DNA of 64,000 bases. Origin: Candidatus Sumerlaeia bacterium (GTDB lineage: Bacteria; Sumerlaeota; Sumerlaeia; MVZB01). The stretch's first letter is position 1. Every line of letters starts with the position of its first letter. The notes under the pieces are model-generated. The model was not told where the DNA came from, did not search any database, and worked only from the letters and a program-made list of their open reading frames with translations. The stretch spans positions 1,751-65,750 of the forward strand of contig JBDKRG010000040.1 of the NCBI GenBank assembly GCA_039683515.1, written 5' to 3'. A program made the position numbers and the translations under genes. Of the stretch, positions 15,769 through 53,133 are shown in pieces.

Positions 15769-16293
15769 ATGCCGGCCCGCGCCCGCAAAACCAAACCGAA
15801 TCCGGCCGCCATTGAAGCCATCATCCAGGCGCGCAAGCCGGCGGGGGTGAAGCGCATCGACCCGCGCCAGGTCCCGACGGCCGAGTGGGTGCGGATGAAA
15901 TGCCAGTATGGCTGCGGCGGCTACGGCGGCTGCCTGACCTGCCCGCCGCACTCGCCGACGCCCGAGCAGACGCGCCGGCTGCTCGACGGCTACACGGTCG
16001 GCTACCTGATCCACTGGGGCCACTCGATCCCGCGGCGCAAGGTGCTGGCCGCGATCGAGCGCGAGGTGTTCCTGTCGGGATTTTACAAGGCGTTCACGCT
16101 CGCCGCCGGCCCCTGCGACCTCTGCCGCGAGTGCAACCTGGAAACCTGCCTGCACCCCGAGGAGGCCCGCCCGGCGATGGAAGCCTGCGGCATCGACGTC
16201 TACGAAACCGCCCGCGCCGCCGGCTTCGAAATCGAAGTCATCAAAACCCCAACCACCCCCCCCAATTACTTCTCGCTGCTGCTGGTGGAATGA
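15769..16293 (+). CDS. Cys-rich predicted metal-binding protein (DUF2284-like)
   Basis: Cysteine clusters CQYGCGGYGGCLTCPPH and CDLCRECNLETC. The DUF name is from memory. Confidence 0.55.
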   Translation: MPARARKTKPNPAAIEAIIQARKPAGVKRIDPRQVPTAEWVRMKCQYGCGGYGGCLTCPPHSPTPEQTRRLLDGYTVGYLIHWGHSIPRRKVLAAIEREVFLSGFYKAFTLAAGPCDLCRECNLETCLHPEEARPAMEACGIDVYETARAAGFEIEVIKTPTTPPNYFSLLLVE

Positions 16294-16403
16294 AATTGAT
16301 CAATGTAATGTCGGGCCTTGAAAAAGGAATTAGTCACATGTCCCTGATATTCCCTCCCTGCTAATTCGGAGCATGAGAAATTGTTGGCAGACTCATTGGG
16401 ATA

Positions 16404-17111
16404 TTATTCGTTAGCTGATTCTGGGCATAGCATGGGAGCGCTTGGATCTTCAATGTCGTCAAAGACGCCTAAATATTGGGTCTTTGGTGGGTCGATATGA
16501 AGTTTTGTGCCAATTTCCAAAAGCAAGTCTTGTAACCAGTGATATTTGATTCTCACCCGTTCGCTCTTCTGTATGACAGATAGATTTGCGTCATGTGCTG
16601 CTTTCGCAGCAGTCCAAACCCGCTCAAAAGATTCAGTCGTAACAATGTTGAGAAACCACTGATTCCCACTTTTTAGAACCAGCAAATCTGATAGTAGACT
16701 TGGAAACATCTCAAGAATATTGGAATCTATCATAATTCGAGGAAACTCAGCGACTTGTGATTCTAGTTGATAGGCTTTAGTTAGGACTGGACTGTAGGTG
16801 ATATTCTGGTTTTTGAAGTGCTGCCCGAATGACACACCTCCACGGATCAGAAGTCCCTCCTCTAGGAAAGAAACAAATACGTTACGCAAGATCAATAAAA
16901 ATTCCCTTACCGCATCACGCTCAGGGCATGAAATAAACATTGAATCTGATATAGCTTGGTACGCATATCGGGATTGATTGATTTGATCAAAAACTCGAAA
17001 GGCCCGGACCATACGCTCCTTAAAGTCTTGTGTGCCGTTCTTGATATCAGCGTCAAGTGCTTCCTTGTACCCAAGGATATCCAGAAAAGCCATGTAGGCG
17101 TGATCAGGCAT
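16404..17111 (-). CDS. Cyclase-homology-domain (class III nucleotidyl-cyclase / mCpol-like palm) protein with an unknown C-terminal half
   Basis: Lies in the low-GC island. The N-terminal ~130 aa follow the order of the class III cyclase palm blocks: MAFLDILGY (FADIVGFT-like, metal Asp 1), AISDSMFISC (IGDAYM-like, metal Asp 2), LLIRGGVSFGQHF (RIGIHTGPV-like) and YSPVLTKAYQLES (GDTVNTASRMES-like, with the catalytic N and R replaced). Overlaps the upstream ParA-like gene by 8 bp. Confidence 0.5.
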   Translation of the reverse strand: MPDHAYMAFLDILGYKEALDADIKNGTQDFKERMVRAFRVFDQINQSRYAYQAISDSMFISCPERDAVREFLLILRNVFVSFLEEGLLIRGGVSFGQHFKNQNITYSPVLTKAYQLESQVAEFPRIMIDSNILEMFPSLLSDLLVLKSGNQWFLNIVTTESFERVWTAAKAAHDANLSVIQKSERVRIKYHWLQDLLLEIGTKLHIDPPKTQYLGVFDDIEDPSAPMLCPESANE

Positions 17112-18120
17112 CGATTACCACCTTGGCCAGCTTTTCTATTTCAGTTGCGTACTCCGCCGCTCTTTGAAGCCAGCTCTCAAGTGCTACACCGCTCCAGGTG
17201 GTTCCATCTGCAGAAGTAAGACTTGTGTCAGTCTTGTCGAGATCGAAGATCGCCTTTCCTGCAATGTGGGCAACAGGTGCAAGGCCTCCGAAGTCTTTGA
17301 TACTCGCAATATAATTCTCAGAACCGGGTCGTGTGGGCACAGATGGAATTAGATCCGTTTGGAGGACTGTTAGAATCTGTTGTTCCCAGTATTCATATGG
17401 CTTCTTCGTGCGACCGGCATATGCTTTAAAGTTCTCGCTTACCGCGCCAAGAAAGGTTGGTTGTCCTGGGAAGCAAGAAATCCCAAATGGTGGGAATGTT
17501 GCAATTGTGCGTTGATGGCGTTCAATCCAGAATTTTATTAGCTTTGCGAGTGCCTCAACCGCCTGGGTACAGAATCTATCTGGAGTAACAGGAATAAAAT
17601 AACCATCACAGCTAAGCAAAGCGAGGTTGGTAATCGCACCGCTAGACGGTCCAAGATCAACCAAAATATGATCGAAACTGTGTAATGCCAGTAAATCTTG
17701 GAGCAAATTGTAAAAAACAACGTATGTATGTTTTTCATGAACACTTTCGGTGATTGCCAAAGCGAGGGCGTTCGAGAAATACCGTTCGGCGAGACTGAAG
17801 TTCCAATCTCCTCTCAGAATATAAAGTCTCTTATACTTCTCATGGGATGGCAAGATGAGATCTTTAGGATTAATTCTGGCAGCCGCACCATCGAAACGCG
17901 GCCTAAGAGCTTCAAAGATTGTCGTCCCTGGAAGATCAGCATCTTGCTTTTCTACGGGCGGTGCAAAAAAATTTTCGGTAAGGTTGCTCTGGGGGTCGGC
18001 ATCTACCAATAGCACTTTACGACCCAAACGATCCGCCAAAAAGACCGCTAAGTTGAACGTTGTGGTCGTCTTGGAGACTCCACCCTTATGATTGTAGAAT
18101 GTCAACGTTCGGATAGACAT
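17104..18120 (-). CDS. ParA/MinD-family deviant Walker-A ATPase with a ~90-aa C-terminal extension
   Basis: Low-GC island. Deviant Walker A KGGVSKTTTTFNLA, the motif LLVDADPQSNLT and a Walker B-like HILVDLGPSSG. At 338 aa it is longer than Soj/ParA (~255 aa). Confidence 0.85.
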   Translation of the reverse strand: MSIRTLTFYNHKGGVSKTTTTFNLAVFLADRLGRKVLLVDADPQSNLTENFFAPPVEKQDADLPGTTIFEALRPRFDGAAARINPKDLILPSHEKYKRLYILRGDWNFSLAERYFSNALALAITESVHEKHTYVVFYNLLQDLLALHSFDHILVDLGPSSGAITNLALLSCDGYFIPVTPDRFCTQAVEALAKLIKFWIERHQRTIATFPPFGISCFPGQPTFLGAVSENFKAYAGRTKKPYEYWEQQILTVLQTDLIPSVPTRPGSENYIASIKDFGGLAPVAHIAGKAIFDLDKTDTSLTSADGTTWSGVALESWLQRAAEYATEIEKLAKVVIDA

Positions 18121-18357
18121 GGGGTTCTCTCTGGATCAAGTATCGGCAGCGCGACTATGTTTTTGCTCGTCGAGCCATCAATCATACATATAGTTCTTCC
18201 CGATACAATTCAATCAGAATCAACAACCCGCAATATTGACGCCCAAACGGGTGTTCATTTCTCATTTCTCATTTCTCATTTCTCATTTTATACTCGCAGT
18301 TTGGATCTCGTCGTGAATCACGCAGATCCTGACAACGCCATTTGCCGGAAGCCATTT

Positions 18358-21231
18358 ATGTCCATGCTGACCGCCGCCGACATCCGCCGCCTTTACGTCC
18401 AGTTCTTCGTGGAGCGCAACCACCGTCACGTCCCGAGCGCGCCGCTCGTGCCGCCCGACGACCCGACCCTGATGTTCACCTCGGCCGGCATGGTCCAGTT
18501 CAAGGCGCTCTACTCGGGCCAGGTGGCCCTGCCCTACACCCGCGCCACCACCGTCCAGAAGTGCCTGCGCGCCGGCGGCAAGGGCTCCGACCTCGAGAAC
18601 GTCGGCAAGACGCTGCGCCACCACACGTTCTTCGAGATGCTCGGCAACTTCAGCTTCGGCGACTACTTCAAGCGCGACGCCATCGCGTGGGCGTGGGACT
18701 TCTGCACCAGCGCCAAGTGGCTCGGCCTGCCCGCCGAGCGCATCTGGCCGACCGTCTACGGCAAGAAATCGAACGGCGACTGGATCGTCGACGAAGAGGC
18801 CCGCGACATTTGGAAAAAAGAAACCGGCAACATCAACCCGGTCACGCTCCTCGACGAGAAGGAAAACTTCTGGGGCCCGGCCGGCGAGACCGGCGCCTGC
18901 GGCCCATGCAGCGAAATCAAGTTCTTCATCGGCACCGACGAGGAGCTCAAGTATTACCAGGAGCTGGCGAAAAAAGGCGACCCGGCGTCGCTCAAGGAGA
19001 TCGCCCGCGACATCGTCGACAAGGGCGACCTGTTCCTCGAGATCTGGAACCTGGTCTTCCCGCAGTATGACCAGCAGCTCGACGGCTCGCGCCAACCGCT
19101 CAAGAACCGCGGCATCGACACCGGCATGGGCCTCGAGCGCACGACGACGTCGGTCCAGTTCATTCGCGGCGGCGGCCGAATCATGACCCCGTACGAGACC
19201 GACCTGTTCGCGCCGATGATCAAGGCCGTCAGCGAGATCGCCGGCATCCCGTACCCGACCGTGCACGATGACGCGAACGCTTCCGCGGCGATCGAGGCGC
19301 GCGGCATGAAACCCGCCGAAGTCCGCCTGGCGATGAATGCGATCGCCGACCACGCCCGCGCCCTGACGTTCACGCTCGCCGAAGGCCTGGTCCCGAGCAA
19401 CGAGGGGCGCGGTTACGTGCTGCGGCGAATTTTGCGCCGCGCGGCGCGGTTCGGCAAGAAGCTCGGCGTCAGCGAGCCGTTCATCTGGCGGCTCGTCCAG
19501 CCGGTCATCGGCGTGATGGGCGAGGCCTACCCCGAGCTCCTCAAGCACCCCGACATGATCGAGAAAACGATCCGCCTCGAGGAAGAGCGTTTCAACCGGA
19601 CGCTCAACCAGGGCAGCCAGCTCCTTGACGAGCTCCTTGCGAACATCGAGCCGGGCGGCACGCTCAAGGGCGACGACGCCTACCGCCTCTACGAGACCTA
19701 TGGCTACCCGATCGACCTCACGGTCGAGACGGCCGAGGAGCGCGGCATCAGCGTCGACACCGAGGGCTACGAGCTGGCGCTGGCCGAGGGCAAGTCGCGG
19801 GCGCGCGCCTCGTGGAAGGGCGGCGCCGGCGAGGCGCAGTGGGCCGAGATGCTCGCCGACCTCGGCAACGCGAACAAAACCGAGTTCATCGGCTACGAAT
19901 ACACCGAAGACGAGGCCGACGTGCTCGCCCTGATCTACAACGGCGAGCGCGTCGAGAAACTCGAGCCGGGGCAGTCGGGCATCGTTGTCCTCGACCGCAC
20001 GCCGTTCTACGCCGAATCCGGCGGCCAGATCGGCGACACCGGCCGCATCCTCGCCCTCATCGACCCCGAGCGCCACCCCGACCCGAACATGCGCATCGAG
20101 AACGACGACGTCAAGCTCGTCGGCGAACAGCTCATGGCGGTCGAGGACACGCAGAAGACGACCAACGGCTACACCATGCACTTCGGCGAGGCCGTCGACA
20201 CGATCGGCGTCAACCAGCGCGTCTACGCGCAGGTCGACGAGGCGCGCCGGCTCGCGACCGTCGCCAACCACTCGGCCACGCACCTCATGCAGGCGGCGCT
20301 CAAGAAGGTCATCGGCGCGCACGTCACGCAGCAGGGCTCGTTCGTCGGCCCCGAGGGCCTGCGCTTCGACTTCACCAACCCCGAGCCGGCCACGGCCGCC
20401 CAGCTGCGCCGCGTCGAGGAACTCGTCAACGAGATGATCCGCCGGAACGCGCCGGTCACAACCAAGGTAATGGACCTCGAAGAAGCCCGCCGCACCGGCG
20501 CCATCGCCCCGTTCGGCGAAAAATACGGCGCCCGCGTCCGCGTCATCACGATGGGCGCCGACGACGAAATCATTTCGCGCGAGTTCTGCGGCGGCACGCA
20601 CGCCGGCGCCACCGGCCAGATCGGGATGTTTGTCATTACGGGCGAGTCCTCGGTCGCCTCGGGCGTCCGCCGCATCGAGGGCCTGACCGGCGCGGCGGCC
20701 GTCGAGCGCGTCCTCAACGAGCGCGACATGCTCGCCGCCCTCTCGCGGCGGCTGTCGGCCCCGGCCGACCAGCTCGCCGACCGCCTCATCGCGATGCAGG
20801 ACGAGCTCAAGCACCTGCGCCGCCAGGTCGACGAGGCCCGCGCCGAAAAGGTCCGCGCCCAAGCCGCCGAGGCCGCCGGCGAGGCGCGCGAGATCAAGGG
20901 GATCAAGCTCGTCATCCAGCGCATCGACGGGGCCGACCTGGGCGCCCTGGCCCAGGCGTGGGACGCCCTGCGCCAGAAGAGCGACGCCAAAACCGTCGGT
21001 GTCTTCTGCGGCGTCGTCGACGACAAGGTCAACATGGTCGTCGGCGTGACGGCCGACGTCGCGACCAAGGAGTTCAACGCCCCGGCGATCATCCGCGAGG
21101 CGCTGGCCCCCTTGGGCGGCAAGGGCGGCGGCAAGCCGGTCATGGCCCGCGGCGGCGCCGGCCACCCCGAGCAACTCGACAAGACGCTCGAAGGGCTTCC
21201 GGCATTAGTTGAGCGCCTGATCAACAATTAA
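18358..21231 (+). CDS. alaS: Alanine--tRNA ligase
   Basis: Class II aaRS motifs (FTSAGMVQFK, HHTFFEMLGNFSFGDYFK), the editing-domain HxxxH (HSATHLMQAAL) and a C-terminal DHHA1 domain. Start at ATG 18358. Confidence 0.95.
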   Translation: MSMLTAADIRRLYVQFFVERNHRHVPSAPLVPPDDPTLMFTSAGMVQFKALYSGQVALPYTRATTVQKCLRAGGKGSDLENVGKTLRHHTFFEMLGNFSFGDYFKRDAIAWAWDFCTSAKWLGLPAERIWPTVYGKKSNGDWIVDEEARDIWKKETGNINPVTLLDEKENFWGPAGETGACGPCSEIKFFIGTDEELKYYQELAKKGDPASLKEIARDIVDKGDLFLEIWNLVFPQYDQQLDGSRQPLKNRGIDTGMGLERTTTSVQFIRGGGRIMTPYETDLFAPMIKAVSEIAGIPYPTVHDDANASAAIEARGMKPAEVRLAMNAIADHARALTFTLAEGLVPSNEGRGYVLRRILRRAARFGKKLGVSEPFIWRLVQPVIGVMGEAYPELLKHPDMIEKTIRLEEERFNRTLNQGSQLLDELLANIEPGGTLKGDDAYRLYETYGYPIDLTVETAEERGISVDTEGYELALAEGKSRARASWKGGAGEAQWAEMLADLGNANKTEFIGYEYTEDEADVLALIYNGERVEKLEPGQSGIVVLDRTPFYAESGGQIGDTGRILALIDPERHPDPNMRIENDDVKLVGEQLMAVEDTQKTTNGYTMHFGEAVDTIGVNQRVYAQVDEARRLATVANHSATHLMQAALKKVIGAHVTQQGSFVGPEGLRFDFTNPEPATAAQLRRVEELVNEMIRRNAPVTTKVMDLEEARRTGAIAPFGEKYGARVRVITMGADDEIISREFCGGTHAGATGQIGMFVITGESSVASGVRRIEGLTGAAAVERVLNERDMLAALSRRLSAPADQLADRLIAMQDELKHLRRQVDEARAEKVRAQAAEAAGEAREIKGIKLVIQRIDGADLGALAQAWDALRQKSDAKTVGVFCGVVDDKVNMVVGVTADVATKEFNAPAIIREALAPLGGKGGGKPVMARGGAGHPEQLDKTLEGLPALVERLINN

Positions 21232-23323: not shown

Positions 23324-23373
23324 GTAGATTGCGGATTTCGGATTGCGGATTGCGGAATTAATAATTCAATTGG

Positions 23374-26096: not shown

Positions 26097-26215
26097 TCCG
26101 ATTGCGGATTGGGGATTTCGGAATGCGGATTTCGGAATTGATTCCGGAATCCGCATTTTTCTTTCAATTCCGCAATCCGCAATCCGAAATCCGCAATTCC
26201 AATTGGCAGTCGTTC
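26096..26215. repeat. Palindromic array of (gcggatt)-type heptamers forming a long imperfect hairpin
   Basis: cgattgcggattggggatttcggaatgcggatttcggaattg | attccggaatccgcatttttctttcaattccgcaatccgcaatccgaaatccgcaattccaattgg. A related half-array occurs at 23328-23378. Confidence 0.85.
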
Positions 26216-28184: not shown

Positions 28185-28340
28185 AGTCCTGAGTCCTGCG
28201 TCCTGAGTCCTGAGTAAAAATATGTCCAGCACTCAGGACTCAGCACTCAGGACTCAGCACTCAGGACTCAGCACTCAGGACTCAGCACTCAGCACTCAGG
28301 ACTCACCACTCACCACTCAGCACTCAGGACTCAGGACTCT
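28185..28340. repeat. Heptamer array: (agtcctg)4, spacer, (sactcag)~16, forming an inverted-repeat hairpin and ending at the rnj start codon
   Basis: tcctgagtcctgcgtcctgagtcctgagt aaaaatatgtccag cactcaggactcagcactcagg...gactcaggactcttcATG. Confidence 0.9.
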
Positions 28341-39655: not shown

Positions 39656-41002
39656 CTACTTCTTCCCGGGCTTCCCGAACGTGCCTTCCACGACGACTTC
39701 GGCCTTGGTCATCTTGATCGTGACCCGGTCGCGCTCCGTCTTGCCCGACCACTCGTTGCCGTCACGGGAAAGCTTGAGCCCCTCGACGCGCGCCTCCATC
39801 GCCTGCGCCATGGCCTGGGCGAATTCCTCCGCGTCCGCCTCGGTGTCCCACTTGGTCGTCCACGAGAAGGCGTGGTCGCCCGCTTCGTCGAGCGCCAGCA
39901 GGATCCGGTCGCCGTTCCAGCCGGCCGCCGCCCTAACTGCCTGCTCGCGGCCGACCGACGGCTCGAGCAGCGTGCGGATCCCGAACTCGCCGAAGACGTT
40001 CTGGCCGAACGCGCCCTTGCCCGACGGCTTGAACGGCTCGATCGTGGCCGGCATTTCGCGCGCGAGGTATTTGTCGGGGTGGATGATCTGCTCCGTGGTC
40101 TCGGGCGGGTCCTGGAAGATCGATCCGCGCCACGCCGAATCCATCCCCACGGTCCAGTCGGCCGGGGCCTTGGGGTTCTGCCGCGTCCGCCCCGCCAGCG
40201 CCTGGAAGAACTTCATCCCCTCCAGATACGGGAACAACACGATCTGCTGGATCGCGACCGGCGCCTGCTCGAACTTGCTCTGGTCGATCAGCAGCATGCG
40301 CGGGATGTCCATCATCATCGTCACGGGATTGCCGTAGCGGCTGACGTATTCGCTCATGAGGAGCGTGGCGTCGCCCTCGGCCACCGCGAGCGCGGCCAGG
40401 GCGCGGTCGTCGTTCTCGATATCCTCGACCCCCATCCGGCGCAGGTCGTAATCCTGGTCCTGCATGGCGTGGCTGATCTCGTGCGCCAGAACCATCCGCC
40501 CCAGCGGCCGCTCCAGATCGAAGTTCGTGCTGACGTAGAGCTTCTTGGTGCCGGGGTGGTAGATCCCCGCGGCCTGCTCGCCCATCAGGTCCTTCAGGTA
40601 CCGGGGCAGGTCGATCCCGTCGGGCATCGCCCCCATCAGGACGTTGAACCAGATGTAGAGGTCGAGCCGGTGGCCGGGGTATTGCTTCTTGACCGAGTCG
40701 TCGACGATCCAGTTGAGCACCGCCGGCGTGAGCTCGGCGTATTCGACCGGCTCCTTCACGAGAAACGACCGCATCGCCGCGACCTGAAGCTGCGTCTCGA
40801 AGACGAGCCGCTTGATCCGGGCGTCGGCGAGCTGGTTCTGCGCCCGGTCGAGCCGCAACCTCAGCAGCTTGATCTCCCGGTCCTTGAGATCGTCCGAGGC
40901 GAATGATGAATGATGAATGATGCATGATGAACACACGAATAAAACCAGCAAAAGTCGATGAACGCATCGATTCATGATCATCCCCTTTTCATCACTCATC
41001 AT
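39656..41002 (-). CDS. Secreted zinc metalloprotease (HExxH)
   Basis: N-terminal signal-like hydrophobic segment and the LAHEISHAMQD zincin motif. The 5' end and the first codons lie in a (catcatt)n repeat, so the exact start is uncertain (41002 or about 40975). Confidence 0.7.
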   Translation of the reverse strand: MMSDEKGMIMNRCVHRLLLVLFVCSSCIIHHSSFASDDLKDREIKLLRLRLDRAQNQLADARIKRLVFETQLQVAAMRSFLVKEPVEYAELTPAVLNWIVDDSVKKQYPGHRLDLYIWFNVLMGAMPDGIDLPRYLKDLMGEQAAGIYHPGTKKLYVSTNFDLERPLGRMVLAHEISHAMQDQDYDLRRMGVEDIENDDRALAALAVAEGDATLLMSEYVSRYGNPVTMMMDIPRMLLIDQSKFEQAPVAIQQIVLFPYLEGMKFFQALAGRTRQNPKAPADWTVGMDSAWRGSIFQDPPETTEQIIHPDKYLAREMPATIEPFKPSGKGAFGQNVFGEFGIRTLLEPSVGREQAVRAAAGWNGDRILLALDEAGDHAFSWTTKWDTEADAEEFAQAMAQAMEARVEGLKLSRDGNEWSGKTERDRVTIKMTKAEVVVEGTFGKPGKK

Positions 41003-42156
41003 TCATCATTCATCATTTTCAAAACCGCGTCCACCACCTGGCTCGCCGGGATCAGGTCCTGGCAGCTCGGCGAGACGTCGCAGCCCCGGCGGTAGCAGGG
41101 CGCGCACCCGATCGGCGTCGTGATCTTCACGCCGCGGCCGTACATCTCGATTTCCTGCTGGCAGGTCGGCCCGAAGATCGCCACCGACTTGCGCCCGGTC
41201 GCCAGCGCCAGGTGCATCGCCAGCGTGTCGCCCGAGGCCACCACCGCGCAGCGCTCGACGAGCGCCGCGAACGTCCCGAGGTCGTAGCTGGATCCCGGCA
41301 GCAGGACCGGCGTCTGCGAGGACGCCCTGTGGGCCTTCTCCTGAATCCGCCCCATCAGTTCGGCTTCGTCCGGCCCGCCGAGCAGCACGACCGACACGTC
41401 CGGCCGGCGCAGCGCCAGCTGGTTGATCACCTCGACCCAGCCGTCCTCGCGCCACGCCTTCCGGGCGAAGACGCGCCCGGCGCCCGGGTTGATCCCGACG
41501 AGCGCGCGGCCTTCCCGCAGCCCCGCCGCGTCGAGCAGGCCGGCCGCCGCGCGCCGATCGGCCTCGGTCGGCGCGATCGTGTAGCCCTGGCCGGCATACT
41601 CCATCCCGAGCGCCTCGTACACCAGCTCCGGATAGCTTTTCCGGTTGCCGTGGAATTTCTCGTCGTTATCGAGCCCGAGCCGGAAGTAGTAGTGCGCCTC
41701 GGAATTGAGCGGGAAGACCGTCCCGTAGCGCGACACCCCGACGCCGAGCTTCTTTTCGGCCTGGACGCGCATCGCGACCGACGCCGGCCCCGGCTCCTTG
41801 TCCAGGCTGATCACGATCGCGAAGTGTTCCAGTTCCAGGTGCGCCAGCGCCTCGGCGTTGAACTCCAGGACCCGGTCCACCCCCGGCATGCGCTCGACGA
41901 GCGGCATGGCGGCCCGGCTCGTGAGCCACGTGATGTGCGGCGGGTCCGAGGAGTCGCGCAGCCCCGGGATGAGGCACGCCGTCCGCACGACGTCGCCCAG
42001 CGCCGCGAGCTTGATGATCAGCACGCGCCGCCCCATCGGCTCGTAGCTGGGGCACCCTTCGCACAGCCTCAAAAGCTGGCACGGCCTATCCCCGCGATAC
42101 TTCCGGCAGTCTAGATGGAGGAATAAGGATTGTGGTGACAACGGATCCATATGCAT
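40999..42156 (-). CDS. Glycosyltransferase family 9 (ADP-heptose:LPS heptosyltransferase-like) with an N-terminal Cys-rich extension
   Basis: RVLIIKLAALGDVVRTACLIPGLR..ITWLT and C-terminal GxGxxARKAW and GDTLAMHLALATG motifs typical of GT9. Overlaps the protease gene by 4 bp. Confidence 0.8.
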   Translation of the reverse strand: MHMDPLSPQSLFLHLDCRKYRGDRPCQLLRLCEGCPSYEPMGRRVLIIKLAALGDVVRTACLIPGLRDSSDPPHITWLTSRAAMPLVERMPGVDRVLEFNAEALAHLELEHFAIVISLDKEPGPASVAMRVQAEKKLGVGVSRYGTVFPLNSEAHYYFRLGLDNDEKFHGNRKSYPELVYEALGMEYAGQGYTIAPTEADRRAAAGLLDAAGLREGRALVGINPGAGRVFARKAWREDGWVEVINQLALRRPDVSVVLLGGPDEAELMGRIQEKAHRASSQTPVLLPGSSYDLGTFAALVERCAVVASGDTLAMHLALATGRKSVAIFGPTCQQEIEMYGRGVKITTPIGCAPCYRRGCDVSPSCQDLIPASQVVDAVLKMMNDE

Positions 42157-42973: not shown

Positions 42974-44389
42974 TTAATTCTCCGCCTGCACCTGGCTCGG
43001 CGTAATCTCGATCATCCCCATATCCTCGGGCAGCGTTTTCTTGACCGCGATCCCGAGTTCTGGGAATTTGCGCGCCGTCACCATCAGCCGCGACTCGATC
43101 GACGAGACTGCGGCATTATAACTCTTCACCGCGTTCTCGAGGTTCGACCCGACCTTGCCGATGTGCTCGATCACGACCGCGAGCCGCTCGTAGAGCTGGC
43201 TGCCGAGCTCGCTGATCTGCTGCGCCTCGCGCGCGATGAGCTCCTGCCGCCACCCCATCGCCACCGTCCGCAGCAATGCGAACAGCGTCGCCGGCGTGGC
43301 GAGGATCACCTTGCGCTCGAAGCCCTTTTCGATCAGGTCGGGCTTGTGCTCGGCGGCCGCCGCGAGGAATCCCTCGCCGGGGATGAACATCACGACGAAC
43401 TCGGGCGCGGTCTTGAACTGCGCCCAGTAATCCTTCTGCGAGAGCTTTTCGAGGTGGCCCGCGACGTGCTCGGCGTGGCGGCGCATGTGCGCGCGGCGCT
43501 CTTCGGGGTCGGCCGAGTTGATCGCGTCCATGAACGCCACGAGCGGCGTCTTGGCGTCGATCACGATCGAGCGCGCTTCCGGCAGGTTCACGATCATGTC
43601 CGGCCGCAGGCGCCCGTCCCCGGTGCCGACGCTCACCTGCTCCTCGAAGTCGCAGTGCTCGACCATGCCGGCCAGCTCGACCGCGCGCCGCAGCGTGACC
43701 TCGCCCCACCGCCCGCGCACCTGCGGCGCGCTCAGTGCGTGGACGAGCTTGCGCGTTTCCTCATTCAACCCGCGCTGCGACTCGCCGAGCGACTGCACCT
43801 GCGCGCGCAGCTCGCCGTAGGCCGACTCGCGCAGCGTCTCCATGCCGCGGATCTGTTCCTCGTAGCGCTTGAGCTGCTCGCGCAGCGGCGCGACGAGCTC
43901 CGCGACCGCCTGCTGGCGTTTTTCCAATTCCGCCTTCGATACTTCCTGCGCCGCCCCGAGCCGCTCGCCCGCGAGCTTCAGGAACGACTCGCTGTTCTGG
44001 TCCAGGGCCTGCCGCGCGATGACCGAAAACGCCTCCGACAGCTTCTTCTTCGTATCCTCAAGAAGCGCCAGTTTTTCCTGCGCCGCCTTGCGCTCCTGCT
44101 CGAGCGCCGTCTGCAGGCTCGCAGCCGATTCAATCCGCAGCTTGAGCTGGCCGTCGAGATTCGCAATTTGATTTTCAAGCAATGGGATGCGGGATGCTTC
44201 GGTTTCAGCGACATGAACCTTGCCCAGTAACTCTTCGATGCGGGCGGTAAGAGCAGACGTGTTCTTTTCCTCTTCTACGAGCTGTACCGTGCGTTCGGCG
44301 AGTTCGCGGCTCATTGGTCGCATCAATAGGTAAACAATCACGCCCGTCACTAAACAACCGGCAATGAACAATCCCACGTAGATAACCAT
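42974..44389 (-). CDS. rmuC: DNA recombination protein RmuC
   Basis: N-terminal TM helix, long coiled coil, and the conserved RmuC C-terminal domain (RGRWGE..L.R, PDMIVNLP, VIDAKTPL, VVMFIPGEGFL). Confidence 0.9.
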   Translation of the reverse strand: MVIYVGLFIAGCLVTGVIVYLLMRPMSRELAERTVQLVEEEKNTSALTARIEELLGKVHVAETEASRIPLLENQIANLDGQLKLRIESAASLQTALEQERKAAQEKLALLEDTKKKLSEAFSVIARQALDQNSESFLKLAGERLGAAQEVSKAELEKRQQAVAELVAPLREQLKRYEEQIRGMETLRESAYGELRAQVQSLGESQRGLNEETRKLVHALSAPQVRGRWGEVTLRRAVELAGMVEHCDFEEQVSVGTGDGRLRPDMIVNLPEARSIVIDAKTPLVAFMDAINSADPEERRAHMRRHAEHVAGHLEKLSQKDYWAQFKTAPEFVVMFIPGEGFLAAAAEHKPDLIEKGFERKVILATPATLFALLRTVAMGWRQELIAREAQQISELGSQLYERLAVVIEHIGKVGSNLENAVKSYNAAVSSIESRLMVTARKFPELGIAVKKTLPEDMGMIEITPSQVQAEN

Positions 44390-44658
44390 TATTTCCCCAC
44401 CGTACCTGGATTTGAGATCTTGTTCAGCAGGTCGCGATACGTTTCGTCAAAAAGGGTGTTCGAGATGGCAAAAAATGCTATAAAAATGATAATACCTATC
44501 AGTCCAAAGATAATTCCAATCGGCAAACGCAGTTCAATCAAGCCAAACCCGATGAACATCGGAATGAACAAGACCGGGAACCAATTTGCACGCATTTCGA
44601 CCCGCGCCTGCTTCCGATCCGCATCATAAGTAATCATTCCATGATAAAAGGGCGTCAT
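44389..44658 (-). CDS. Hypothetical small two-TM membrane protein in a low-GC islet
   Basis: 89 aa with hydrophobic stretches (FPVLFIPMFIGFGLI, GIIFGLIGIIIFIAFFAI). Local GC ~40%. Its stop overlaps the rmuC start. Confidence 0.35.
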   Translation of the reverse strand: MTPFYHGMITYDADRKQARVEMRANWFPVLFIPMFIGFGLIELRLPIGIIFGLIGIIIFIAFFAISNTLFDETYRDLLNKISNPGTVGK

Positions 44659-44930
44659 TGAAAACCATCCAACCAGAACTTTATCGCGAAATCCAATCTC
44701 CTAGGGGCTGAAACGATGAATCACAATCGGCAACCCGCCGACAGTCGATTCAAGTCCACGGAATTGGTTTGGATCAATTGGCAGCAGGTGACAGCGCAAC
44801 AAAATTCCGGAACAATAATACAGTCGATTCCAGCCAAAATAAAGCACATGGTCGACAATCGCAATTACACAAAGTATTATGAAAATAATGAACATGAATT
44901 GAATCCGGACTTCTTCTCTGCGTTCTCGTC

Positions 44931-45347
44931 CTATCTCTGCGTCTCTGCGTTCGTATTTTGTTTTTTCTCCAGTTCGCCGACGCGCTCGCCGAGTTCCTCG
45001 ATCTGGCGCACGAGAATTTCGTTGGCCCGCCGCATCGCCTGCAGCCGGAAGATCACGAACTCGAAACCCATCACCAGCGACACGATCATCAGCGCGCCCC
45101 AGAAGAACGTCAGCCAGACGAACATGTTGGAGCGCAGCGACGTCAGCTGCATCAGCGACGCCAGCAGCCCGAGCGCCGCCGCGAACTGCACCACCGGCAG
45201 GAGCGTCTCCCACCAGCGCGGCGCCAGCCGCTCGCGCAGCCGTTCCTGGTCGCGGATGTCCTTGAGCCTGTCGGCCAGCGTCAGCTCGCGCAGCAGCTCT
45301 TCCTTGTCCTTCGGGTATTGCGGCTTTTCCTGCGGCTCTTCCATCAT
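44931..45347 (-). CDS. Hypothetical membrane protein with a coiled-coil C-terminus
   Basis: Strong GC3 bias in this frame. Two TM segments, then the heptad-like region LVRQIEELGERVGELEKKQ. Confidence 0.55.
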   Translation of the reverse strand: MMEEPQEKPQYPKDKEELLRELTLADRLKDIRDQERLRERLAPRWWETLLPVVQFAAALGLLASLMQLTSLRSNMFVWLTFFWGALMIVSLVMGFEFVIFRLQAMRRANEILVRQIEELGERVGELEKKQNTNAETQR

Positions 45348-45440
45348 GCGTGAAGAATAGATGACAACCGCCCGACGATAAAGCCAAATCAATCCGGATC
45401 AACCCTTGCGCGCCCACCCCGCCTGTGATTTGCTTTGGGT

Positions 45441-52251: not shown

Positions 52252-53088
52252 ATGTCAGGCATGCTTCAGTTCACCGTCGACGAATCGCTCTGCACGCGCT
52301 GCGGCGAATGCGCGCGCGACTGCCTCGCCGGGATCATCCGGCAGAAGGGGAACAAGCTCCCCTCGATCAACGCGGACCTGGAGCCGCTGTGCATGAAGTG
52401 CCAGCACTGCCTCGCGGTCTGCCCGACGGGGGCGATTTCGATTCTCGGGAAAACCGCGGACGGCAGCGAGCCGCTCGATCTCGGCCGTTTTCCGAGCCTG
52501 GACCAGATGTCGCACCTCGTCCGCGGCCGCCGCAGCGTCCGCCAGTACAAGCAGGAAAACGTCAACGCCGCGCTGATCAAGCGCATCCTGACGACGCTCG
52601 CCCACGTACCGACCGGCGGCAACGCCTGCGAGCTGACGTTCACGGTGATGGGCGACATCGACGCCATGCGCCGGTTCGAGCGGGAGATGATCGCGGCGAT
52701 CCGGTCGGCGAACATGGGCGGCGGGCTGCCGGAGCGCTACCGGCCGATAATGGAGCTCGACGACGACAGGCTCGCCGCGCGGCTGTTCCGCGGCGCGCCG
52801 CACTTCATCGTGGCGTCGGCCCGGCCCGACGCGCCGTGCCCGGCCGAGGACGCCGCGCTCGCCATCGCCAACTTCGAGCTGCTGGCCCTCAGCGCGGGGC
52901 TGGGAAGCGTCTGGTGGGGGTTCTTCAGGATGTTCTCGACCGCGATCCCCGGGCTCAAGACGATGCTGGGCATCCCCGAGGACCACGTGCTGTCGGCGGC
53001 GCTGTTCGGCCACCCGGCGGTCCACTACGCCCGGACGGTGCAAAAAGCCGACGCGGCGGCGATAAGAGTCCTGAGTGCTGAGTGCTGA
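52252..53088 (+). CDS. 4Fe-4S ferredoxin domain fused to a nitroreductase-family domain
   Basis: CTRCGECARDC...CMKCQHCLAVCP (two Cx2Cx2Cx3C motifs), then a nitroreductase fold (RRSVRQY...). The last ~8 codons and the stop lie inside the (ctgagtg)n repeat. Confidence 0.75.
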   Translation: MSGMLQFTVDESLCTRCGECARDCLAGIIRQKGNKLPSINADLEPLCMKCQHCLAVCPTGAISILGKTADGSEPLDLGRFPSLDQMSHLVRGRRSVRQYKQENVNAALIKRILTTLAHVPTGGNACELTFTVMGDIDAMRRFEREMIAAIRSANMGGGLPERYRPIMELDDDRLAARLFRGAPHFIVASARPDAPCPAEDAALAIANFELLALSAGLGSVWWGFFRMFSTAIPGLKTMLGIPEDHVLSAALFGHPAVHYARTVQKADAAAIRVLSAEC

Positions 53089-53133
53089 GTCCTGAGTGCT
53101 GAGTGCTGAGTCCTGAGTGCTGAGTGCTGAGTC
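53066..53133. repeat. Heptamer array (ctgagtg/ctgagtc), about 9 units
   Basis: tcctgagtgctgagtgctgagtcctgagtgctgagtgctgagtcctgagtgctgagtgctgagtcg. It overlaps the 3' end of the nitroreductase gene. Confidence 0.9.

Follow-up and report, generated by a model that had tools for sequence, protein, structure and literature searches.

A 64-kb stretch of a Candidatus Sumerlaeia bacterium contig (64,000 nucleotides; the whole stretch analysed is called the window here) contains a small islet of low guanine-plus-cytosine (GC) content, in which two overlapping genes encode a long-form ATPase of the ParA/MinD type (gene 1) and an unnamed protein with a divergent cyclase-homology fold (gene 2). Judging from genomic context, we consider the chances about even that this pair is a self-contained, horizontally mobile conflict or defence module directed against phages or mobile elements, and we regard it as a promising candidate for a previously undescribed bacterial defence module. 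The known role of ParA/MinD ATPases is positioning, and that of cyclase-fold enzymes is the generation of signals. Neither superfamily is new, and defence based on cyclases is an established theme. No description of their pairing was found in a full-text literature search or in the libraries searched, in keeping with an earlier reading made from the DNA letters (the sequence-only reading), which knew of no described partition, defence or signalling system combining a ParA-type ATPase with a cyclase-fold protein. The gene 2 family is unnamed in Pfam 2025, NCBIfam 20 and PADLOC 2.0, and occurs in PHROGs only as an unnamed family. Whatever its function, it defines a large unannotated superfamily (~3,600 clusters) without a Pfam, NCBIfam or PADLOC model, and the confident fold assignment together with clear catalytic-site residues for mutation makes this superfamily directly testable.

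The islet and its two proteins

The islet extends from approximately 16294 to 18340, between a DUF2284 gene and alaS, and holds two co-directional genes on the minus strand. Its main features are as follows.

17104..18120, minus strand: gene 1, a long-form ParA/MinD-family ATPase of 338 amino acids (aa), from its open reading frame (ORF) and motifs
16404..17111, minus strand: gene 2, an unnamed protein of 235 aa with a palm resembling the cyclase homology domain (CHD) at residues ~1-155 and a helical C-terminal part, from its ORF and an AlphaFold2 (AF2) model
Within 16404..17111, minus strand: putative catalytic set of gene 2, D11, D56, R90-G91-G92 and P124-R125
17104..17111, minus strand: 8-bp start/stop overlap ATGCCTGA, read from the sequence
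17118-17124, minus strand: Shine-Dalgarno site AAGGTGG, within the end of gene 1 and 7 nt 5' of the gene 2 start codon, read from the sequence

The contig belongs to a metagenome-assembled genome, and NCBI entries of that genome match both proteins at 100% identity. Both ORFs were located at the coordinates that the sequence-only reading had given, and the 8-bp overlap it described was read directly; the overlap ATGCCTGA and the AAGGTGG site indicate that gene 1 and gene 2 are translationally coupled. The islet was also correctly recognised as low in GC. In 100-bp windows, GC drops at ~16300 (0.74 to 0.45) and recovers at ~18340 (0.38 to 0.68), and the gene pair has a GC of 0.449 against 0.648 +/- 0.029 in same-sized windows elsewhere in the 64-kb stretch (z = -6.9), so that the drop is sharply bounded and not common to the surrounding genome. 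GC at third codon positions is 0.42-0.43 in both genes of the pair and 0.73-0.93 in neighbouring genes (0.93 in alaS and 0.89 in the DUF2284 gene).

Gene 1 belongs to the ParA/MinD (SIMIBI) superfamily by its deviant Walker A motif with the signature Lys, its A' and B motifs and its ParA fold. The motifs comprise K12-G-G-V-S-K17-T-T (KGGVSKTT) for the deviant Walker A, D40/D42 (DADPQ) for A' and D155 for Walker B, and K12, G13, G14, K17, T18, T19, D40, D42, Q44 and D155 are invariant among 34 homologs, which bears out the earlier call of a deviant-Walker-A ParA/MinD ATPase. AAA_31 (1.9e-25) and CbiA were matched above threshold in Pfam, while CBP_BcsQ scored under its cutoff. The AF2 model (predicted local distance difference test, pLDDT, 93; predicted template modelling score, pTM, 0.92) has the ParA/MinD fold. 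The best matches to the protein are McdA, ParA and the delta protein, and the closest known systems include ParA-ParB, McdA-McdB, pSM19035 delta and the orphan 3pg5 (DIP2308). It differs from these positioning ATPases in being a long form of ~340 aa. The sequence-only reading had attributed the excess length to a C-terminal extension of ~90 aa. The extra length is real, and relative to ParAs of ~250 aa it includes a conserved C-terminal helix (residues 312-337) with invariant W317 and Y324; it does not form a single 90-aa tail, the rest of it being spread over insertions. This long-form family is large, with more than 1,756 90%-identity clusters at E <= 1e-20 and full-length matches down to 43% identity. 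Characterised ParA/MinD proteins dimerise on ATP, bind DNA or a surface, and have an ATPase activity modulated by a partner; by analogy, the gene 1 product may likewise dimerise, bind DNA or a surface and respond to its partner.

Gene 2 had no significant match in Pfam, NCBIfam, PADLOC or a single-sequence PDB search, and matched one PHROG family of unknown function (phrog_23933, 1e-23). All of its 66 close homologs, at 47-70% identity, are labelled hypothetical. A profile search returned 114 relatives, again all hypothetical and without Pfam domains save fused GerE or methyltransferase modules, and an exhaustive search returned 3,602 50%-identity clusters at E <= 1e-3, with 213 at E <= 1e-10. 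The AF2 model, built with 30 homologs (pLDDT 87, pTM 0.83), runs from beta1 (3-13) through two helices, a beta2-beta3 hairpin (50-62), a helix and beta4 (88-98) to a further helix. It has the beta-alpha-beta-beta-alpha-beta palm of the CHD fold with CHD-specific elaborations, followed by a family-specific helical C-terminal part (162-203) that carries the conserved K189 and W192. When a profile of 41 diverse relatives was searched against PDB sequences, the top matches were mycobacterial adenylate cyclases (E ~0.03), and the alignment paired LDILGF with FADIVGF, the first metal-binding Asp motif, which places D11 at the first Asp of Rv1900c. The palm fold and this alignment agree with the class III cyclase-type palm proposed in the sequence-only reading.

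Across these 41 relatives, whose mean column identity is 12%, D11, D56, R90, G91 and R125 are invariant, and L13, G14, S55, A113, E117, A121, P124, K189 and W192 are nearly so. D11 closes beta1, D56 lies at the hairpin turn, and R90-G91 start beta4. From the corresponding positions in cyclase and GGDEF palms, D11 and D56 would be the two metal ligands and R90 the phosphate-binding Arg, so that the two metal Asp residues and the beta4 phosphate Arg of a CHD appear to be present, with D56 and R90 assigned by topological position. By motif alignment, the transition-state Asn/Arg of helix alpha-4 (N-x-x-x-R) is replaced by the conserved L110/Y114 (V-L110-T-K-A-Y114-Q-L-E-S); the substrate-positioning Asn and Arg had already been read as replaced, and both Asp residues and the RGG Arg are kept throughout. 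The PF00211 model did not match gene 2 at E <= 1 and matched 1/41 relatives (E = 0.0086). Gene 2 is therefore a divergent CHD relative that lies outside PF00211 by sequence and has only some of the canonical catalytic residues. Binding of metal and nucleoside triphosphate (NTP) is probably preserved: the retained two-Asp metal site and triphosphate-binding Arg lead us to expect binding of Mg-NTP, and the invariance of Asp-Asp-Arg over a very divergent superfamily argues for an active Mg-NTP enzyme rather than a scaffold.

Compared with the class III cyclase CHD (PF00211), gene 2 has just 8-18% identity, has Leu/Tyr in place of the alpha-4 Asn/Arg, has no conserved base-specifying pair, and carries an additional helical module at its C-terminus, marked by a conserved K..W. 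Its resemblance to the palms of mCpol, Cas10 and GGDEF proteins is clearly weaker than that to CHDs; it has SDS at the hairpin instead of a GGDD or GGDEF motif and, at 235 aa, is about twice the length of the mCpol of Panoptes (~119 aa).

Some relatives encoded beside a ParA-like gene carry extra C-terminal modules, namely P0028 (L004 10001-10861), P0005/P0013, P0336 and P0007/P0026. These modules are a GerE/LuxR helix-turn-helix (HTH), a CxxC...CxxC Zn-ribbon-like tail, a methyltransferase (PF13489/PF08242) and an unassigned extension of ~120 aa, and they may point to DNA association or to additional outputs.

Inheritance and spread of the pair

The ParA-like gene lies directly upstream of its partner in every locus examined that has a full-length relative (~17 independent contigs), and this arrangement persists as the identities of the two proteins (ParA-like/partner) fall from 76/69% to 38/25%. 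The two genes usually overlap, by 8 bp or by 4 bp: the 8-bp overlap recurs in L001-L004, which are independent of one another (L005 duplicates L004), and the shorter one was found in L006/L007 and L012. Close pairs, with identities of 67-77% for the ParA-like protein and 47-75% for the partner, come from Caballeronia, Verrucomicrobiales, Leptothrix, a megaplasmid of Hyphomicrobiales, a metagenome-assembled genome (MAG) of Pseudomonadota and many metagenome contigs. More distant pairs occur in Achromobacter and Leisingera (49/36% and 45/32%) and in L012 (39/31%); in L015, where partner identity is 25%, the contig edge leaves only the end of a ParA-like gene in view. The two proteins have diverged in step, with a tight correlation (r = 0.95, n = 13; r = 0.75 inside the close clade), and are therefore inherited together. 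The question raised by the sequence-only reading, whether the two genes co-occur as a conserved pair, can thus be answered in the affirmative for the loci examined.

The distribution of the pair is sporadic. The close family was present in only 4/185,579 species-representative genomes, and its hosts are scattered over Sumerlaeia, Melainabacteria, Verrucomicrobiales, and Alpha- and Betaproteobacteria. The pair has a lower GC than its flanks at each of the nine loci measured (0.39-0.57 vs 0.56-0.67). Two copies are decaying: in Caballeronia CP084251 (L001 9394-10663) the first ~134 codons of the ParA-like gene are gone and the partner ORF is intact, and in a Leptothrix MAG (L011 8126-10662) an insertion of ~880 bp interrupts the ParA-like gene and a frameshift disrupts the partner. 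Low GC relative to the flanks, sporadic occurrence and decaying copies together form the signature of a small, mobile, repeatedly acquired module, in line with the horizontally acquired look that the sequence-only reading had remarked on.

Plasmids hardly carry the close family, and phages do not. It was found in 1/72,556 plasmids, in 0/50,697 phage records (tblastn) and in 0/2.9 million viral contigs (IMG/VR pattern scan), and a fold search of BFVD found no close relative. A phage origin of the pair was rejected, as phage records, IMG/VR and BFVD contain no close relative.

Defence context and alternative readings

Neighbour scans were qualitative, being based on greedy ORF calling, which is imperfect in GC-rich DNA. 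Many copies of the pair adjoin genes of conflict systems or mobile elements: VapBC, MazE-Fic and a DUF2726 protein in L002; an MNT-like nucleotidyltransferase pair in L003; BrnA in L024; an AbiJ-NTD4/PDC-S32 protein directly upstream of the pair in L025; a type II DNA methyltransferase in L009; a phage baseplate gene in L029; and ArdC, an Mrr-type nuclease, and TraG and TrwC of an integrative and conjugative element (ICE) in L006. In Achromobacter (L022/L023 5995-7887), a gene with a Phage_P4_cII domain and an unannotated 315-aa gene lie directly upstream of the pair, an arrangement that we take to be reminiscent of the P4 gop-beta-cII defence hotspot.

The more distant members of the gene 2 superfamily have no ParA partner; the D..SD..RGG..PR..K..W pattern is nonetheless kept, in standalone and in fused members. 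Three of the four contexts of standalone relatives examined (3/4) are unmistakable defence islands. In L032-L036, the relative adjoins a complete QatABCD system, along with DUF2971, SLFN-like helicase/nSTAND3, DUF4062, RhuM and AAA_21 genes. In L016-L018, it lies, translationally coupled, between an MmeI-type restriction/modification enzyme and RhuM; a gene for a PemK toxin is close by. In L021, on an Agrobacterium plasmid, it lies beside AbiEii, PP2C, PLD-like and AAA+UvrD (Gabija-like) genes. This neighbourhood evidence for a link to defence is suggestive, not conclusive.

The island in L032 (378-6408 and 8202-14759) encodes its QatABCD as a KAP NTPase, QatB, a 453-aa QatC-like gene and TatD, together with a metallophosphatase. 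Several unannotated genes in the same island could be further candidate systems.

In a defence module of this kind, gene 2 would be the catalytic core, a divergent nucleotidyltransferase of the cyclase-homology fold that might carry out 3'-OH or nucleotidyl transfer, with synthesis of a cyclic or linear nucleotide, consumption of NTP or, alternatively, modification as its output. Gene 1 would provide an ATP-dependent, dimerising ParA/MinD ATPase, probably DNA-binding and, through translational coupling, made in a fixed ratio with the enzyme. The ParA-like protein would anchor the enzyme on the nucleoid and act as its gate, and a change in the state of the DNA on infection or on entry of an element would release or activate the enzyme. 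We infer the activity of the enzyme, the binding of the ParA-like protein to DNA and to the enzyme, and the defensive output. The HTH and Zn-ribbon-like tails on some partners would fit a DNA-associated site of action.

Several observations weigh against a defensive role. Unlike Pycsar, CBASS and Panoptes, the module includes nothing that can be recognised as an effector (nuclease, TIR, pore-forming or transmembrane), and this is where the defence reading is weakest. As for known defence models, PADLOC-DB 2.0 searched with both proteins gave nothing beyond the P-loop. The ParA-like protein had only P-loop-level matches, to PDC-M28B (E ~4e-5, ~40 residues), and gene 2 matched no model, with 1/41 of its diverse relatives matching weakly; the PADLOC check proposed with the sequence-only reading thus found no known system. 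Gene 2 has neither the canonical transition-state Asn/Arg nor the residues that specify the base in class III cyclases, which makes cyclase activity itself uncertain. Further, the C-terminal HTH (GerE) or Zn-ribbon-like tails of some members would equally fit a ParB-like DNA-adaptor role, and many copies, including the one in the window, are surrounded by plain housekeeping genes.

Identity with Pycsar or Panoptes was rejected because no effector gene lies alongside and PADLOC does not recognise the pair. In Pycsar, the cyclase lies beside an effector with a cyclic nucleoside monophosphate (cNMP)-binding domain that is fused with a TIR or a transmembrane domain, whereas here the only conserved partner is the ParA-like ATPase and no PADLOC Pycsar model was matched. 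Panoptes pairs its mCpol with a 2TM-beta or CARF effector; here there is none, nor a PADLOC match, and the pair falls outside that system.

If the pair is a defence module, a DNA-bound ParA would be a new type of sensor in bacterial immunity, and a new branch of the nucleotidyl-cyclase superfamily would join the immune nucleotide enzymes already known, which are CD-NTases, Cas10/mCpol, Pycsar cyclases and TIRs. A further-reaching version, which we think less likely than not, is a new class of immunity in which a nucleoid-bound ParA-type ATPase acts as the infection sensor and gates a cyclase-fold enzyme, with the product or the consumption of NTP itself as the output and no separate effector. 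Were this true, the module would be novel in how it senses infection and possibly in its nucleotide chemistry, and the unnamed superfamily (~3,600 50%-identity clusters) would be a previously unrecognised family of defence enzymes.

The same two genes could instead form a ParA-adaptor system for positioning or partition, with the cyclase-fold protein as a ParB- or McdB-like partner, or a cargo, that stimulates the ParA-like ATPase; what is spread over the nucleoid would then be a mobile element, a protein assembly or the enzyme itself. Such a system is suggested by the order and coupling of the operon, which mimic parAB (parA first, partner second), by an ATPase whose nearest relatives are positioning proteins (McdA, ParA and delta), by the copies in a conjugative element (L006) and on an 802-kb megaplasmid (L010), and by the GerE HTH or Zn-ribbon-like tails, which suggest DNA binding in some partners. 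Nevertheless, we think it unlikely. In known positioning systems the partner is a centromere-binding or disordered adaptor, whereas here it has an enzyme-like cyclase fold with an invariant active site, and it is also found without ParA in defence islands; its N-terminus, as read from the sequence, has no basic ParA-stimulating peptide of the kind usual in adaptors. Most copies stand alone as chromosomal islets without replication or integration genes. Nor does the pair have the components of a ParABS partition locus, as the partner is a cyclase fold rather than a ParB HTH or a ParG ribbon-helix-helix and no centromere or parS-like repeats lie beside the operon. The upstream DNA of the other loci is unrelated from locus to locus and contains no iterons, conserved repeats or centromere-like sites, and the heptamer array upstream of the operon in the window looks like a genome-wide trait (see below). 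Given the distribution above (1/72,556 plasmids, 0 phages), an ordinary plasmid partition locus was rejected, and the outcome that the sequence-only reading had named as contrary to its proposal, homologous pairs found only as ordinary plasmid partition loci, did not materialise.

Quite unlikely, in our view, is a selfish addiction module of the toxin-antitoxin (TA) kind, in which the cyclase-fold protein would be a toxin acting by NTP depletion or through a toxic nucleotide, the ParA-like protein would restrain it, and the unit would persist since its loss is harmful. The compact, translationally coupled two-gene unit, its foreign composition throughout and patchy distribution, and the TA modules that adjoin some copies are all compatible with addiction. 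Decay that begins with damage to the ParA gene and extends to the partner (L011) is compatible as well. However, a highly conserved (67-79% identity), active ATPase of 338 aa would be atypical as an antitoxin, and standalone homologs exist that have no neutralising partner. The Caballeronia copy (L001) is also difficult to reconcile with addiction: with the ParA-like gene truncated and the partner ORF intact, a partner acting as an unrestrained toxin would kill its host.

A second-messenger or regulatory module without a role in defence, in which a MinD/ParA-type ATPase would cooperate with a localised cyclase-like protein (active, or degenerate and ligand-binding) for control of the cell envelope or motility, by analogy to BcsQ-BcsE or FleN-FleQ, is very unlikely, as no conserved third gene or pathway lies beside the pair and the neighbours vary in every locus, foreign composition and sporadic spread are atypical of a host-wired regulatory circuit, and Pfam CBP_BcsQ stays under its cutoff on gene 1. 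The palm domain of BcsE is degenerate and binds cyclic di-GMP; gene 2 differs in that its catalytic Asp residues are invariant, and no bcs genes lie nearby here.

Surroundings of the islet and other features of the window

The neighbours of the islet are ordinary chromosomal genes, with the DUF2284 gene and an SGNH hydrolase on one side and alaS, Hsp20 and an FGE-sulfatase on the other; a response regulator is also among them. Near the islet, no parB, integrase, tRNA or plasmid genes were found, and the whole window contains no tRNA; the lack of parB, integrase and plasmid genes had been noted correctly in the sequence-only reading. Around the two genes, the following non-coding features were delimited.

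18121..18357, no strand assigned: divergent intergenic region of 237 bp, from the operon start to the alaS ATG at 18358
18255-18288, no strand assigned: perfect heptamer array, TCATTTC x 4.9, upstream of the operon
16294..16403, no strand assigned: low-GC 3' trailer, from the gene 2 stop to the convergent DUF2284 gene

The operon promoter presumably lies within 18121..18357. Promoter and terminator scans yielded no more sites than shuffled sequence. A search for insertion signatures around the islet (direct or inverted repeats, attachment sites, tRNA) returned only short chance-level matches and no tRNA. At the 3' trailer there is a short palindrome, ATGAAATTGATCAATGTAAT (16290-16309); a convincing terminator or attachment-site repeat was not found in 16294-16403.

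The heptamer array at 18255-18288 was considered as a centromere or operator and rejected, as ~9 similar arrays occur elsewhere in the window and the other loci have no repeats. Because similar arrays are common across the window, it is better seen as a trait of the host genome and not as specific to the module. Examples are perfect or near-perfect heptanucleotide tandem arrays of 4-16 copies, with differing units, at 23327-23356, 26169-26197, 28185-28339, 40901-41017 and 53066-53133. Arrays of this kind seem to be characteristic of this Sumerlaeia genome as a whole; phase variation and regulatory spacers are possible functions.

A second dip in GC (0.46-0.52) occurs at 44389-45392, where two small ORFs of 89 aa and 153 aa read as hydrophobic and membrane-like. 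A coiled-coil ORF of 471 aa (42974-44389, minus strand), which looks RmuC-like by eye only, has these two ORFs directly downstream of it.

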